Positions 26,848-54,248 of a stretch of DNA of 64,000 nt are shown one piece after another; the stretch's first letter is position 1; the number at the start of each line of letters is the position of its first letter. The notes below the pieces were generated by a model. The model saw only the letters and a program-made list of their open reading frames with translations, did not search any database and was not told the DNA's origin. The translations under genes and the position numbers were made by a program. This DNA is from a virus (lineage: Duplodnaviria > Heunggongvirae > Uroviricota > Caudoviricetes): IMG/VR virus record IMGVR_UViG_3300031759_000002. The stretch is one strand, 5' to 3'.

Positions 26848-26875
26848 ATTATAGCGATAAAATCTAAAAAGTCAA
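26848..26875 (-). promoter_or_regulatory. consensus promoter TTGACT-N16-TATAAT, 12 nt upstream of ATG 26835
   Basis: Minus strand: cTTGACTttttagattttatcgcTATAATtataattgaactATG. Confidence 0.55.
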
Positions 26876-27117
26876 GTTGAAGTTTTTTTAGATTCATTCC
26901 ATTCAATGAATGAATCTATGGTTGACCGATGAACCCATTCATATTCCGGATGACAATTACAAGCGGTATTAATATACTCTTCAATATTTCCATTGTCAAT
27001 ACGAATCTTTCCGCTTCTCCAATCTTGGTTCTGTTGATTAATAAAATACTCAACTTCCTGTAATAATGTTTCATATCGGTTAATTATAGTATTAACTCTA
27101 TTTTTAGTAATATTCAT
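26872..27117 (-). CDS. hypothetical protein
   Basis: ORF only. Confidence 0.3.
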   Translation of the reverse strand: MNITKNRVNTIINRYETLLQEVEYFINQQNQDWRSGKIRIDNGNIEEYINTACNCHPEYEWVHRSTIDSFIEWNESKKTST

Positions 27118-27118
27118 A

Positions 27119-27379
27119 TTATTTATGGGATGCTTGATATTGTTCTTGTGCCAGTATTTTAGCCTCTTTTAATTCTTGTAACATTTCGGTTGCTTTAAGT
27201 TTAAGTTTAAGTAATTGAGAATATTCTGACCATGTTATATGATGACATGAAGCATGAATTTCTCGCTTGAAATTTCTAATTTCAATACTTAATGATTTAT
27301 AACTGAACTTCCATTCGGTTCTATAATTCAGATATTGTTGTTTCGTTGAGAATGTTAGATATTTATTTATCGTATTCAT
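27119..27379 (-). CDS. hypothetical protein
   Basis: ORF only. Confidence 0.3.
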   Translation of the reverse strand: MNTINKYLTFSTKQQYLNYRTEWKFSYKSLSIEIRNFKREIHASCHHITWSEYSQLLKLKLKATEMLQELKEAKILAQEQYQASHK

Positions 27380-27428
27380 TTTTTATTTTTAATTGATGTA
27401 TGGTGTTATTACCATACATTTTCACTCT

Positions 27429-27755
27429 TTATAGGAGTTGAAATTTTTTGGTAATGTGTTGTATTTGTTCCTTGGTTGCCGGTCCTATACCAAGTGCAGT
27501 AATTGTAGGTTCACCATTAAAGAAATTAGAACAGCCGGAATCAACCACACGAAAGTATGGAATGTTTGATATTTTGGCTTGTTCTTCGGCTTGAAGTAAT
27601 TTGTCTAAGGATTTAACTTTTAGACATATTTTAGTGCCGGGACTTTGAGGAAACTCTTTATGATATTCCTGTTGAATATCTTTAGATGCTTGAAGAAATG
27701 CACCAATATAAGAATGTCCGGCTTGTGAAACTGTTTTTCCTTCGGACATTCCCAA
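27429..27755 (-). CDS. peptidyl-tRNA hydrolase, PTH2 family. The conserved N-terminus continues upstream in frame to ATG 27827 across two TAG codons.
   Basis: ...TDLGMSEGKTVSQAGH...KICLKVKSLDKLLQAEEQAK...ITALGIGP...HITKKFQLL matches the PTH2 pattern (RxDLxMxxGKxxAQxxHA ... LGIGP ... GHLKL). Upstream in frame: M N T * I D S P T * V D T T L R L Y A L V R. Confidence 0.65.
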   Translation of the reverse strand: MGMSEGKTVSQAGHSYIGAFLQASKDIQQEYHKEFPQSPGTKICLKVKSLDKLLQAEEQAKISNIPYFRVVDSGCSNFFNGEPTITALGIGPATKEQIQHITKKFQLL

Positions 27756-50977: not shown

Positions 50978-53578
50978 TATATGGAGTCGTTCGTCTATAT
51001 ATCCGGTTGGAAGAGGTAAATCATTAAATTTAAAATACTTTATAAGCTCGTTAGTTTCTGAGCAAGTCGAATATGCAAATAAGTCGTCTATTTGGTCTTT
51101 TGATATTTTTATATTTTTGTCTAATAACATGTCTAACGTTTTTACTTTATTTGGGGCATGGTTTACTATATAACTTACAACTTTAGGGTCTTCAAGTGGA
51201 ATATCTCGATTAAGTAAAATATAGACTGTTTTTGGTTTTTGACTATGAGAGGAATACCTGATTAAGTTACTAACATTGTTAGAAGTTAGAGGTACATTAT
51301 TGTTTAATAAAAATTCAACCAAATCATCCCTATTATATGAATTATTTAATAATTCTTCTACGTTTTCATCGCTAAATATAGTATTTATTGACATTCCCGA
51401 TTTTAATAATGCGTCTAGGTTTTCTTGTTTATTTACAGCCGTTATAAATATATTTGTGTCTATTGGGGTTGATAATTTATTTATATCAATTCCTTTATTT
51501 CGTAATGTCTCTATCGTTTTAAGTTTATTCGGAGTATATTTAATTATTGAACTTATAATTTCACCATTCAATGTAACATTATTTATTATATAATCTGAAA
51601 TTTGCATAGAATTGGGAAAATTATGTAATAGATAGTATATATTATCAGGTTTTAGTGGAACATTTCTACTCAATAGATTTTCTAATGTTTTTATTTTATC
51701 GTTTGATGCTTGATAAATAATATTTATAGAAGTTGGAGATAATTGAATATTCTTACTAAGTAAAGCATCAAGCGTATCCAATTGGTTGGGAGATTCTACT
51801 AATAAATAATCTATTACCGTCTTTGTCATTTCATAATTGTTTAATATATACTCAATCGATGCTTGTTTATTAACCGAATATCTTAAAATATTAATAATAT
51901 TACTTTCATCCAATCCAATATTATGACTTAACAACCAATCAATTGAATGTTTTTTATTATTTGCTGTGATTATAATATGGTTTATCACATCGTTTGTAAA
52001 TATTTTATCTTGCGGCATTCCACATTTCAGAAACATATTGATTACTGATTCTTTATCATCCGAATCATATATTGAGGATTGTATGCAATACTGTGATAAT
52101 ATAATATCTTTATTTGTTATATAATCTCCTATCTGTTGTTTATTTGGAGCATTTATAATTAATTTTATTATACTTTCCATATCTAATTCTATATTTTTAC
52201 TTAATAAATAATCTACAACTTGTTGTTTATCCATTACCGTTTTTAACATATATTCTATATTGTCAGAAGTAAATATAGCATTTGGTAAAACTCCTTTTAC
52301 GTTTAATAAAAACTCTGCTACATCTTTTTTATCGGGGGAGTGTGATAATAAATTATGAATGGTAATATCATCCAGAGGAATATCTTTATTTAATAACATA
52401 TGAACTATATATTTCTTATCTGGAACTATAGTAAGCATCGACCCCACTATATTACTAGTTAATTGAATATTTTTATCAAATAAAATATTAACCATTTTTA
52501 TTTTATCAGTTGCAGCCCGCAATAGACGTTCTACAATATCATCATCAAATTGAATATTTTTATTTAATAATATTTCCAGCGTTTTTTCTAGGTCTGGAGA
52601 ATTGGATAATAATACAGTTATATTATAATCTGTAAGCGGAATATCTCGATTAAGTAAAATATCAATAAGTCCCTGTTTATCTTGAGTTCTATTAAAAAGA
52701 CTATCTATATTAGATTCTGTTAATGGGATATTTGCGGCTAAATAATGTACAACTTGAGGAGAGTTTTGAACACAGTGTAGTATATTTGTAATATCATTAT
52801 AACTTAATTCGTCTTTTTTATATTCTATATATTGTTTAAGATTTTTAATATTTTTAGTTAATGCTTGGTAATTAATATGTTTACGTCTTACTGATTTTTC
52901 TTCGGAATATGGATTATCCAACACTCTATAAACGCTGAATGCTCTTTTATTTGTAAAGAATGCTTGACATTTTTCATTTCCATGTATAACTCCTCTTCCT
53001 TCATCTATAACCAAATCATATCCAAGATTCTTATATAATAATATGTTCCATATAATGGTCGGTTTTGTATTTTTAATTTGAGCAATCATTTCCGACAGTT
53101 TTTTACAAAAATACCAAAACTCTCCAATCTGCTCTCTGGAAAATTTCGTATTTCGACTACATGAAGCTTTAAGGATTTGTAATGCATCCGGCTCAAAAAA
53201 ATGTGAATATACACTTATTAATTTATCTATGTCTTGATTTCCTTGTTCTTTGGTATATGTAGTTATATTAAGTTCTCGAATGCCTTCATTTTTTTTAAGA
53301 ACATATAGATATGGATGTTCCGATGCAAATGGAAAATCAATTCCTAATTTATTATTTTTAGTATAATAGTTCGATGCGGTTTTAAGTGGATAACAATACA
53401 GTCCAAGAGGAGTATCATAGTTACTTTTTGGATTTATTCCGATTTTGGCAATTGCAGTAAATGATACAAACAAATCGTCTTGTTTTGAAAACTCTAATAT
53501 TTGAGACGCCACTGAGGTTTTCGGATTTAACTTGGGATGACTTCTTCTTTCAACTATAAGGTCAATTAGCTTAATCAT
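50957..53578 (-). CDS. large tandem-repeat protein (about 20 copies of an approximately 35-aa L/N/I-rich helical repeat); unknown family
   Basis: Repeating LLN(R/K)(D/N)IPL...(D/N)I...LL units. A 25-nt identical DNA repeat occurs at 51198..51222 and 52638..52662. Confidence 0.5.
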   Translation of the reverse strand: MIKLIDLIVERRSHPKLNPKTSVASQILEFSKQDDLFVSFTAIAKIGINPKSNYDTPLGLYCYPLKTASNYYTKNNKLGIDFPFASEHPYLYVLKKNEGIRELNITTYTKEQGNQDIDKLISVYSHFFEPDALQILKASCSRNTKFSREQIGEFWYFCKKLSEMIAQIKNTKPTIIWNILLYKNLGYDLVIDEGRGVIHGNEKCQAFFTNKRAFSVYRVLDNPYSEEKSVRRKHINYQALTKNIKNLKQYIEYKKDELSYNDITNILHCVQNSPQVVHYLAANIPLTESNIDSLFNRTQDKQGLIDILLNRDIPLTDYNITVLLSNSPDLEKTLEILLNKNIQFDDDIVERLLRAATDKIKMVNILFDKNIQLTSNIVGSMLTIVPDKKYIVHMLLNKDIPLDDITIHNLLSHSPDKKDVAEFLLNVKGVLPNAIFTSDNIEYMLKTVMDKQQVVDYLLSKNIELDMESIIKLIINAPNKQQIGDYITNKDIILSQYCIQSSIYDSDDKESVINMFLKCGMPQDKIFTNDVINHIIITANNKKHSIDWLLSHNIGLDESNIINILRYSVNKQASIEYILNNYEMTKTVIDYLLVESPNQLDTLDALLSKNIQLSPTSINIIYQASNDKIKTLENLLSRNVPLKPDNIYYLLHNFPNSMQISDYIINNVTLNGEIISSIIKYTPNKLKTIETLRNKGIDINKLSTPIDTNIFITAVNKQENLDALLKSGMSINTIFSDENVEELLNNSYNRDDLVEFLLNNNVPLTSNNVSNLIRYSSHSQKPKTVYILLNRDIPLEDPKVVSYIVNHAPNKVKTLDMLLDKNIKISKDQIDDLFAYSTCSETNELIKYFKFNDLPLPTGYIDERLHIYKEYYS

Positions 53579-53581
53579 AGA

Positions 53582-54184
53582 TTATTGAATTATATTATTG
53601 ATTGCGGCAATTAATTTGTTTTTAATCATATCTGGGATTTTGCCGTTGTTTTGAATACTGTTAATGAGGAATTGAAAATATCCTTTATTTCCAATCAATA
53701 CTTTATCAACTGACCCCACATCACCATATGTTAAATTAAGACTTCCATCTTTATCAATACCATTGATAGTTGCCCCGCCCAGTACGGATGATGGAATTGT
53801 ATTTTTTATAAAAAATATCATCATTTTATCAGACAGCCCTCCTTTTAATCTAAATACATAAAATCCAAGTTTTTCCAATTGACTGCTAATATCTCTTGAT
53901 ACGAGTCCCCATACCATTTTACTACTATATAAATGTTTAATATCTTGCATACCTTTATATACAGATTTTAAACTTCCAGCGGCACCAACTAATTTAACCA
54001 AATCACTTTTTTGTTTTCGGAGTGCTACAAATCCATTATCATCACCATAAAACTCCCAGTCTATAGCTCTATCGATAAACTTATCTTTATCCCAACTTTT
54101 TCCGGTTGATTTGGTATAACTTTTCTGAAAAATATCGAAAGCTTTATCCATATCCATATTAACTATGTGATGTTCTTTTATCAT
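53582..54184 (-). CDS. hypothetical protein
   Basis: ORF only. Confidence 0.35.
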   Translation of the reverse strand: MIKEHHIVNMDMDKAFDIFQKSYTKSTGKSWDKDKFIDRAIDWEFYGDDNGFVALRKQKSDLVKLVGAAGSLKSVYKGMQDIKHLYSSKMVWGLVSRDISSQLEKLGFYVFRLKGGLSDKMMIFFIKNTIPSSVLGGATINGIDKDGSLNLTYGDVGSVDKVLIGNKGYFQFLINSIQNNGKIPDMIKNKLIAAINNIIQ

Positions 54185-54220
54185 ATTTATAAATATAACT
54201 TACCAATTCGAAAGAATACC

Positions 54221-54248
54221 TTGACAATCAGATATAACCTGATATACT
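54221..54248 (+). promoter_or_regulatory. consensus promoter TTGACA-N16-TATACT, 8 nt upstream of ATG 54257
   Basis: cCTTGACAatcagatataacctgaTATACTtttgaaatATG. Confidence 0.55.

Follow-up and report, generated by a model that had tools for sequence, protein, structure and literature searches.

Putative sigma-70-type promoters adjoining start codons point to leaderless gene expression in an uncultured freshwater jumbo phage

A 64,000-nucleotide stretch of the virus record IMGVR_UViG_3300031759_000002 (hereafter the window; positions 284,284-348,283 of a 353,817-bp JGI contig), which derives from an uncultured freshwater jumbo phage with a distantly T4-like genome of ~354 kb, carries two classes of promoter-like motif that end within a few nucleotides of start codons. 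It is probable that these two promoter classes head the transcription units, that the first cistron of each unit is translated from a leaderless mRNA, and that the genes behind it are coupled to their upstream neighbours. As the relatives of this phage share the same layout, the entire phage group appears, on the basis of sequence comparison, to depend on an unusual way of starting translation.

The pattern TTGAC-N17-TATANT, which corresponds to a spacer of 16 nt between the -35 and -10 hexamers, matches the window 17 times against an expected 0.54 matches, and none of 100 shuffled sequences reached this number. With relaxed hexamers and the same spacer, 20 matches were found compared to ~6 in shuffles, with 16 of the 20 situated in non-coding sequence, which makes up 5 % of the window. 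At spacers of 15, 17 and 18 nt, matches occur at shuffle level and mostly within genes, so that only spacer 16 is enriched. A promoter family with a 16-nt spacer had been proposed in an initial annotation of the window, and is borne out both by this enrichment and by a frequency well above that in shuffled and intragenic sequence, with nearly all sites being intergenic. The same sites rank at the top of an independent consensus scan, and all intergenic sites are oriented toward a gene or tRNA of the same strand (Table 1). The consensus of these class 1 sites is cTTGACa-N16-TATAcT, rather than the TTGACT preceded by c that was initially described as usual, with TTGACA (10/17 sites) more common than TTGACT and c preceding the hexamer in only 9/17 sites. 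TG occurs at the extended -10 position of ~11 of the ~24 listed sites, and TTTACA-type -35 variants preceded by AAAATAAC are found at 6597, 22156 and 28451 (minus-strand sites are named by their higher coordinate). The hexamers lie near TTGACA and TATAAT (17 exact matches), the spacer is 16 bp in nearly all sites, which is within the sigma-70-family range of 17 ± 1 bp but off the usual optimum, and the sites are located upstream of units and oriented toward them above chance. Class 1 sites are thus most likely to represent sigma-70-family promoters.

Ten of the thirteen sites listed in the initial annotation (all eight on the minus strand, 39096 and 54221) are exact matches, and 36233 carries the -10 hexamer TAAACT, while 17043 and 50950 had to be set aside. 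The latter, described as a weak copy, lacks a usable -10 at spacer 16 and is not followed by an open reading frame (ORF); positions 50941-50959 are a 19-nt duplicate of the region upstream of the 54221 promoter (54212-54230), situated beside the second TnpB gene. At 17043 the ATG lies 0 nt past the -10 and cannot belong to the transcript of that promoter, and the site is therefore better read as the class 2 motif ATATTTATA at 17058-17066, with the ATG 4 nt further on. Class 1 sites at 887, 28154, 32722, 34041, 46575, 48219, 49092 and 57332, as well as the three TTTACA-type variants, had not been listed previously. The divergent pair at 36199-36260 fills its 74-bp intergenic region exactly, as 6+28+6+28+6 nt, and the palindromic -35 reported there at 36221-36238 (TGTCAA-ATTAAA-TTGACA) is present, joining the two promoters through divergent -35 hexamers placed back to back, 6 bp apart. 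As a separate observation, ATCT or AGAT (mostly as AATCT or AGATT) occurs in 13/21 promoter spacers, compared to 3.0 expected, either just after the -35 or just before the extended -10 TG (e.g. 34020-34035, 36205-36220 and 27841-27856). This element could be a regulator-binding site, or could reflect shared promoter ancestry.

The distance between promoter and start codon is short and confined to a narrow range. A composite pattern of the promoter followed by an ATG 5-12 nt after the -10 matches 15 times, against 0.48 expected. This upholds the initial observation of ATG codons within 12 nt of the -10, excluding the case at 0 nt (17043). The individual gaps at the spacer-16 sites are 5, 6 (four sites), 7, 8 (five sites), 9 (three sites), 10 and 12 nt (two sites), with a further two sites followed by leaders of 29-32 nt. 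In the usual geometry, six intervening nucleotides place the A of the ATG at +1. The base preceding the ATG is T at most promoter-adjacent starts, which together with the A at +1 gives the pyrimidine-purine pair preferred at transcription start sites, but T at -1 is general in the window, occurring in 69 % of all genes. A TAnnnT -10-like hexamer ends 5-12 nt before the start of 33 % of the window genes, compared to 9 % at other offsets; the closest relatives reach 20-28 % of genes and distant T4-like loci 5 %. ATG is the codon at all promoter-adjacent starts in the window and at 114/118 starts overall; at site 11399 of the flank L119 the start, 6 nt after the -10, has been called as GTG.

A second motif, (A)TATTTATA, was found by reading the upstream regions of all genes. 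It lies 2-7 nt before 11-13 ATGs and is of the -10-only type, with no conserved -35 accompanying it. The single promoter family of the initial annotation consequently has to make room for this motif as well as for the TTTACA -35 variant. The exact 9-mer is present in 25 copies, compared to 10 expected, and eleven of these end 2-7 nt before a gene start on the same strand. The motif is found within 45 nt upstream of 14 genes (0.9 for random positions), and the composite of motif and ATG matches 16 times (3.35 expected). As a control, the reverse complement TATAAATA, which has the same composition, is followed 1-9 nt downstream by an ORF-opening ATG in 2/51 cases, compared to 13/51 for TATTTATA. 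In four divergent gene pairs (31522, 39038, 54184 and 56233), with intergenic regions of 45-114 bp, the motif is the sole promoter-like element available to one of the genes, and for this reason it is read here as a putative promoter rather than an RNA element.

Pairing to the anti-Shine-Dalgarno (anti-SD) sequence was computed over the 20 nt preceding 117 scorable starts. A dG of -4.5 or below was reached at 9.4 % of starts and 9.2 % of random positions, and a dG of -6 or below at 5.1 % and 5.0 %, respectively, and the mean duplex energies are also equal. The near-absence of Shine-Dalgarno (SD) sequences noted initially is thus upheld, with no enrichment of the anti-SD complement upstream of starts in the window. 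The exception that had been made for gp44 (8892), and likewise the start at 54841, are probably due to chance, considering that ~5 % of random positions reach a dG of -6 or below, a comparison that is not at the -9 level of these two starts. A is abundant upstream of starts, occupying position -3 in 59 % of genes. Same-strand junctions show a bimodal distribution, with 70/103 measuring 12 nt or less (including 18 ATGA overlaps), 19 measuring 31-60 nt and only four measuring 16-30 nt; the 31-60 nt class has the size of a 28-nt promoter plus 6-12 nt. Tight packing, together with the lack of SD sequences at downstream genes, fits termination-reinitiation or SD-independent initiation on A-rich sequence.

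The arrangement is conserved among relatives, of which 135 kb from seven clade members was scanned. The pattern TTGACw-N16-TAnnnT matches 25 times in these sequences, compared to 3-12 matches at spacers of 14, 15, 17, 18 and 19 nt, and in 12 of the 25 an ORF-opening ATG lies 4-12 nt after the -10, compared to 0-1 at the other spacers. Relatives sharing 49-80 % amino acid identity in the family-B DNA polymerase (PolB) retain TTGACw-N16/17-TAnnnT with the ATG mostly 4-13 nt away, the gaps being 8-13 nt in L125 (44 % G+C, 49 % PolB identity). For example, the L091 ortholog of the 887 promoter is TTGACA-N16-TACAAT with the ATG 5 nt away and the N-terminus of the protein conserved from Met1, while that of the 6597 promoter has its ATG 6 nt after TGaTAAAAT, with MKKE conserved. 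The orthologous promoter of the gene for a 117-aa protein keeps a 5-nt gap despite differing -10 and discriminator sequences, the promoter of the ligase gene is situated 6-9 nt from the ATG in four genomes, one of which encodes a different ligase type, and the 57332 promoter is conserved in L122 at 2252-2279. TATTTATA followed by ATG recurs in L123, L119 and L001. Two promoters of L088 that were considered as TAnnTTTG boxes of the Bacteroidota type were rejected as such, being TTGCAa-N17-TACATT/TATATT and sigma-70-like. In L124 (40 % G+C), three genes for secreted proteins at 2861-6650 have CA/A-rich leaders (...caaacaaccaaaacaaatt ATG) after a shared GTAAATTAC-containing element, which looks like a different, leadered expression signal.

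From the motifs observed, their enrichment, spacing, orientation and intergenic position, the placement of start codons, the absence of SD sequences and the conservation in relatives, we infer the promoter identity, transcript starts, ribosome initiation mode, sigma factor and expression timing in the scheme that follows. RNA polymerase carrying a sigma-70-family factor (class 1: -35 TTGACw, sometimes TTTACw; strict 16-bp spacer, rarely 17; often extended -10 TG; -10 TAtAmT) or a late-type factor (class 2) would start at the A of the AUG or a few nucleotides before it, with the ATG 5-12 nt after the -10 in class 1 (modes 6 and 8) and 2-7 nt after the octamer in class 2. Class 2 would play the role that TATAAATA has in T4 late transcription; homing endonucleases, which follow several of the class 2 motifs, are expressed late in T4. 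The resulting mRNA would begin at the A of the AUG, or have a leader of a few nucleotides at most. Such mRNAs have no room for an SD sequence and leaderless initiation would thus be required, with the first cistron translated via direct recognition of the 5'-terminal AUG. Downstream cistrons would be served by termination-reinitiation (translational coupling) or by SD-independent initiation on A-rich sequence. The leaderless reading put forward initially is in this way supported in silico by the closeness of -10 and ATG, the lack of SD sequences, the conservation of N-termini from Met1 and the retention of the layout in relatives.

Several points weigh against this scheme. The transcript start positions are extrapolated from E. 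coli-type geometry, and where the gap is 9-12 nt, a leader of 1-6 nt is implied instead of a complete lack of one. By analogy with T4 late promoters, where the start lies 5-6 nt after the octamer, the class 2 distances of 2-4 nt are short, and the transcript might in some of these cases begin downstream of the ATG. Leaders of ~30 nt without SD sequences follow three of the sigma-70-like promoters, and SD-independent initiation on leadered mRNA would thus also work in the host, with leaderlessness not being obligatory. For well-studied primary sigma factors the optimum is 17 bp, from which the strict 16-bp spacer deviates. Furthermore, the Bacteroidota's primary sigma factor, if these are the hosts, should not use such promoters (PMC9723704, PMC6847099).

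Three other explanations of the motifs and their closeness to start codons were weighed. The start codons could have been mis-assigned, with true starts further downstream behind ordinary leaders. The gene calls are computational, and at 46867 and 24488 the first ATG is too near the promoter element, with a better fit provided by a second ATG in frame. However, the NAD-ligase, a clamp-like protein, a PD-(D/E)XK nuclease and the 117-aa protein align with their orthologs from Met1 and have in-frame stops just upstream, and no more than a few residues lie between the proposed Met and the beginning of the NAD-ligase and peptidyl-tRNA hydrolase 2 (PTH2) domains. Where the public gene call in L091 does place a start downstream, it is five codons late and skips a conserved in-frame ATG 6 nt after the -10. 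As N-termini are conserved from Met1 in five ortholog sets, that of PTH2 included, the start codons can be taken as correctly placed, and general mis-assignment is hardly credible. It also seems very unlikely that the 28-bp units serve mainly as recombination or mobility joints for the shuffling of small gene cassettes, with the proximity of the ATG a product of genome compaction. Such a role would resemble the promoter-early-stem-loop idea for T4-like phages and would suit the position of the units beside small, poorly conserved genes, homing endonucleases and IS200/605 elements, the 19-nt piece of the 54221 upstream region duplicated beside TnpB, and the AATCT/AGATT element in 13/21 spacers (3 expected). 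Yet compaction explains neither the peak of distances exactly at the start-site window, nor the enrichment of spacer 16 alone, nor the constant orientation toward the gene, and the same geometry is retained at orthologous positions despite sequence turnover; recombination could rather be a side effect of repeated promoters.

For the class 2 motif, an action in RNA was considered, in which (A)UAUUUAUA would be an A/U-rich ribosome-loading element replacing the SD sequence, or a cleavage site at which mRNAs are trimmed to the AUG. The motif occupies the SD position 2-7 nt before the ATG, the spacing between the two is more variable than expected of a fixed start site, and three copies located 2-12 nt past the stop codon of an upstream gene can be read as internal sites of an operon mRNA. 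This would, however, leave the four divergent genes noted above without any promoter-like element. For late genes, T4-like phages are also known to rely on an A/T octamer of the -10-only type, and an invariant 9-mer is more specific than the known A/U-rich enhancers. An RNA element is accordingly considered improbable, and a promoter remains the preferred reading of the class 2 motif.

The identity of the sigma factor is bound up with that of the host. Searches for sigma factors, MotA, AsiA, gp55 and gp33 covered the window and its 10-kb flanks, ~85 kb of the 354-kb genome, and gave no match among ~40 window proteins (PHROGs, Pfam) or in the JGI Pfam calls (window to ~56 kb, and flanks). An outer-membrane-protein-like protein (so judged from its translation, which carries a signal peptide and ends in Phe), two lipoproteins and one Tat signal suggest a diderm host. 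The first of these would argue against the Actinobacteria; for Deinococcus-Thermus, in which an outer membrane is present, the 30 % G+C of the phage is the sole point against. Bacteroidota are hinted at as hosts in several ways. Two metagenome-assembled genomes labelled Bacteroidales contain relatives of the DNA polymerase, and the single signal-peptidase-I-type signal peptide in the window (20311-20859) ends in ...SMSA before Q, in line with the 'Q-rule' of cleavage before Q in Bacteroidetes (PMC5837995). The three signal peptides of L124 (3881, 4940 and 6066) all end in A before Q, and L088 and L092 each provide one non-fitting case. Flavobacterium likewise lacks SD sequences and prefers A at -3 (PMC6847099), and Bacteroidetes have been named as hosts of freshwater jumbo phages with comparable size and G+C (PMC9723584). 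The Bacteroidota sigma-A, however, uses TAnnTTTG, and only ~5 % of flavobacterial mRNAs are leaderless (PMC9723704). In the window TAnnTTTG occurs within 45 nt upstream of 5/118 genes, compared to 2.7 expected, and the two-part pattern with TTTG at -33 is absent from these regions. Considering these hints alongside promoters that are not of the Bacteroidota type, either the host lies outside this phylum or the promoters are read by a phage sigma factor. A PolB profile scan of genome bins returned only relatives of ~30 % identity from many phyla, and neither of the two genome-collection scans identified a close relative in any host genome. A cyanobacterial host, proposed on the basis of the short EF-Ts encoded in the window, was rejected, as the short form is the phage-clade form, with all EF-Ts homologues being of phage type. 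A tblastn search of isolated phages with EF-Ts yielded weak matches only.

It is accordingly conceivable, if doubtful, that an RpoD-like sigma factor of the phage, instead of the primary one of a Bacteroidota host, reads what are real promoters, as an orthogonal system for delayed-early or middle genes. The close polymerase relatives in Bacteroidales-labelled genomes, the Q-rule signal peptides, the translation start signals shared with Flavobacterium, the assignment of similar phages to Bacteroidetes and the lack of TAnnTTTG enrichment alongside the rarity of leaderless mRNAs in flavobacteria all fit this proposal, and T4-like 'group 2' jumbo phages have been reported to encode sigma factors, some near RpoD (PMC7824862). 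Weighing against it are the lack of a sigma homologue in the window and 10-kb flanks, host evidence that is indirect, with the Q-rule for this phage resting on one protein, and the lack of close relatives in the host genomes scanned. The simplest view of a TTGACA/TATAAT family preceding small, early-type genes is that of canonical host sigma-70 promoters. A more elaborate version, in which a Bacteroidota host is combined with a phage RpoD-like sigma (TTGACw-N16-TATAmT) and a second factor (TATTTATA), with all resulting mRNAs leaderless, assistance by EF-Ts, PTH2, R2K and perhaps further translation proteins of the phage, and gating of some mRNAs by a TAG suppressor tRNA, is distinctly unlikely as a whole. 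If true, it would leave phage expression insulated from the host at both transcription and translation.

Table 1. Putative promoters, class 2 motifs and other features of the window
Feature	Positions	Strand	Sequence	Downstream start, gene or remark
Class 1	887..914	+	TTGACA-N16-TATCAT, TG	ATG 920, 5 nt after -10
Variant	6597..6624	+	AAAATAAC-TTTACA-N16-TGaTATAAT	ATG 6633, 8 nt after -10
Promoter	20870..20898	+	TTGTCA-N17-TGaTATACT	30-nt leader, lipoprotein gene 20929
Variant	22156..22184	+	AATAAC-TTTACT-N17-TATACT	ATG 22194, 9 nt after -10
Class 1	26848..26875	-	TTGACT-N16-TATAAT	ATG 26835, 12 nt after -10; HNH endonuclease gene
Class 1	27835..27862	-	TTGACA-N16-TATACT	ATG 27827, 7 nt after -10; PTH2 frame
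Class 1	28127..28154	-	TTGACA-N16-TGaTATATT	Suppressor tRNA starts 11 nt after -10
Variant	28424..28451	-	AATAAC-TTTACA-N16-TGaTATAAT	ATG 28414, 9 nt after -10
Class 1	32695..32722	-	12/12 consensus, TG	ATG 32682, 12 nt after -10
Class 1	34014..34041	-	TG	ATG 34004, 9 nt after -10
Class 1	35950..35977	-		ATG 35941, 8 nt after -10
Class 1	36199..36226	-		ATG 36192, 6 nt after -10; half of divergent pair
Class 1	36233..36260	+	-10 TAAACT	ATG 36267, 6 nt after -10; other half of divergent pair
Class 1	39096..39123	+		29-nt A/T-rich leader, ATG 39153
Class 1	42626..42653	-		32-nt leader, ATG 42593
Class 1	43926..43953	-		ATG 43919, 6 nt after -10
Class 1	46290..46317	-		ATG 46283, 6 nt after -10; heads operon with PARP-like gene
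Class 1	46548..46575	-		ATG 46538, 9 nt after -10
Class 1	46840..46867	-		Usable ATG 46829, 10 nt after -10; annotated ATG 46841 overlaps -10
Class 1	48192..48219	-	-10 TAAACT	ATG 48183, 8 nt after -10
Class 1	49065..49092	-	TG	ATG 49056, 8 nt after -10
Class 1	54221..54248	+	TG	ATG 54257, 8 nt after -10; ProQ_C-like protein
Promoter	56280..56308	+	TTGACT-N17-TACACT	ATG 56316, 7 nt after -10; R2K ATP-grasp gene
Class 1	57332..57359	+	Perfect	Inside 109-aa ORF, 114 nt upstream of EF-Ts gene
Class 2	10161..10169	+	ATATTTATA	6 nt before ATG 10176, GIY-YIG gene
Class 2	15440..15448	+		4 nt before ATG 15453
Class 2	17058..17066	+		4 nt before ATG 17071; site 17043 of the initial annotation
Class 2	19863..19871	+		7 nt before ATG 19879
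Class 2	24488..24496	+		2 nt before ATG 24499, 8 nt before in-frame ATG 24505
Class 2	30092..30100	-		3 nt before ATG 30088, metallophosphatase gene
Class 2	31509..31517	+		4 nt before ATG 31522; sole promoter-like element in 45-bp divergent intergenic region
Class 2	34431..34439	-		7 nt before ATG 34423
Class 2	39044..39052	-		5 nt before ATG 39038, GIY-YIG homing endonuclease; divergent from 39096 promoter
Class 2	54188..54196	-		3 nt before ATG 54184; divergent from 54221 promoter, 72-bp intergenic region
Class 2	56240..56248	-		6 nt before ATG 56233; divergent from 56280 promoter
tRNA	28041..28115	-	Anticodon CTA, reads TAG	ARAGORN; Rfam tRNA, 63.6 bits
Homing-endonuclease genes	4419-4634, 10176-10961, 24839-25549, 26209-26835, 31522-32388, 38088-39038, 43957-44808			

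One of the class 1 promoters (28154) serves a suppressor tRNA, situated 200 nt upstream of the PTH2 gene. The frame starting at the ATG of 27827 continues into the PTH2 gene if TAG is read through at two positions, codons 4 and 10, and the PTH2 domain reaches 11 residues upstream of the annotated start, with the extended protein scoring 88 bits (profile 2-115) compared to 72 bits (13-115), and with its alignment to solved structures of PTH2 beginning at their residue 2. Of the stop codons used in the window, TAG is the least frequent (7/118). Two in-frame TAG codons, a domain extending upstream of the standard-code start, the nearby suppressor tRNA and the rarity of TAG together suggest that expression of this peptidyl-tRNA hydrolase depends on TAG suppression. 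In L125 the PTH2 gene lies 8 nt after a TTGACT-N17-TATAGT promoter and contains no TAG codons.

The genome has been assembled from at least 16 samples, and one assembly (353,739 bp) has a different start point, indicating that it is complete and either circular or circularly permuted. The window has a G+C content of 30 %, is 95 % coding under the standard code, and encodes a T4-type replication module (family-B polymerase, clamp-loader ATPase and SNF2-type helicase) as well as many glycosyltransferases. Megablast of 20 kb against isolated phages gave no match, and the best isolate on the basis of PolB is Microcystis phage Mel-JY01 (38 % identity). The metagenomic relatives with 49-80 % PolB identity are contigs of 230-400 kb with G+C contents of 30-44 %, and IMG/VR holds a single member of the clade (L008). 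Homing-endonuclease genes are unusually dense in the window (HNH, GIY-YIG, NUMOD3 and LAGLIDADG), several of them directly behind the TATTTATA motif; Rfam identified only tRNA in the window, with no group I intron detected. Two TnpB genes and one Y1 TnpA gene of the IS200/IS605 type are located at 40645-41757, 48302-48685 and 49772-50911, where the G+C content is slightly raised. TnpB homologues with 80-92 % identity are common in metagenomes, and a search of 185,579 species genomes returned no close TnpB copy. An 873-aa protein (50957-53578, minus strand) contains many repeats with a recurring LLNKxIxL motif, and has no PHROG match and no Pfam entry in the JGI calls. Genes related to the expression machinery of the host include those for an R2K-clade ATP-grasp enzyme (56316-57158), PTH2 (27429-27827), a PARP-like ADP-ribosyltransferase with a PARP regulatory domain (44867-46141) and a ProQ_C-like protein (54257-54625). 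The short EF-Ts (57474-58142) has homologues across the whole jumbo-phage clade, on contigs of up to 380 kb.

Should transcript mapping confirm the proposed scheme, an entire clade of jumbo phages of 230-400 kb, present in many metagenomes, would express nearly all promoter-proximal genes from leaderless mRNAs without SD sequences. For these genomes the layout provides a simple annotation rule, taking as start codon the first ATG that occurs 5-12 nt past the -10; this corrects gene calls, as in L091 and at 46841, and exposed the PTH2 gene that would need TAG read-through. The question of which ribosomes and which sigma factor serve the phage is sharpened by the presence of Bacteroidota hints alongside non-Bacteroidota promoters.

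Both components of the arrangement, phage promoter families of the sigma-70 type and leaderless expression, are known, and no report of the two together in this form and in this phage group was found in the literature searched. The early promoters of T4 and T4-like cyanophages, which are read by host sigma-70, are similarly numerous, with near-identical -35 and -10 elements and often an extended -10, each precedes a small gene of unknown function, and the T4-type replication module is shared. They differ in that the TTGAC promoters of 74 distant T4-like loci have a spacer of 17 and an ATG ~20-30 nt away, compared to the strict 16 bp and 5-12 nt observed here. T4 mRNAs use SD sequences. In Microcystis phage Mel-JY01, leaders likewise measure 20-30 nt and contain ACAGGAA, and the leaderless layout is absent. 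The T4 late promoters (TATAAATA, read with gp55, gp33 and the clamp) resemble class 2 in being -35-less A/T octamers that precede homing-endonuclease and non-early-looking genes, but the motif of this phage is TATTTATA, and the ATG follows after 2-7 nt rather than after an SD-containing leader. TATAAATA itself is not enriched upstream of window genes (1 compared to 1.7 expected), and the resemblance is thus probably one of function only.

Leaderless middle and late transcripts are said to have been described by Sevostyanova and colleagues in 2007 for the Thermus phages phiYS40 and P23-45. These are also large lytic phages with a -10 directly before the ATG of many genes, but their leaderless classes are reported to be -35-less, whereas here a full -35/-10 class would be leaderless too, in a genome of 30 % G+C. 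To our knowledge, dominant leaderless expression is otherwise confined to Thermus phages and leaderless-rich hosts. In Deinococcus-Thermus ~40 % of genes are leaderless (PMC3160421), but the genomes on the Thermus side are G+C-rich compared to that of this phage. Among other large phages, 5'-end mapping of phiKZ revealed no leaderless transcripts, and that of AR9 gave leaders of 26-491 nt throughout (PMC8244752, PMC5312081). Flavobacterium johnsoniae shares the lack of SD enrichment, the A at -3 and the almost exclusive use of AUG (PMC6847099, PMC7797042), but its mRNAs are leadered, with leaders of more than 10 nt in 87 %, and it uses the TAnnTTTG promoters that are absent from the phage window. 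The expression mode of Deinococcus-Thermus and Actinobacteria that is termed '-10 region adjacent to ORF' (PMC12340547, PMC3160421) shares with the phage the peak of TAnnnT hexamers 5-12 nt before starts, and differs in being a property of the cellular genomes of particular phyla.

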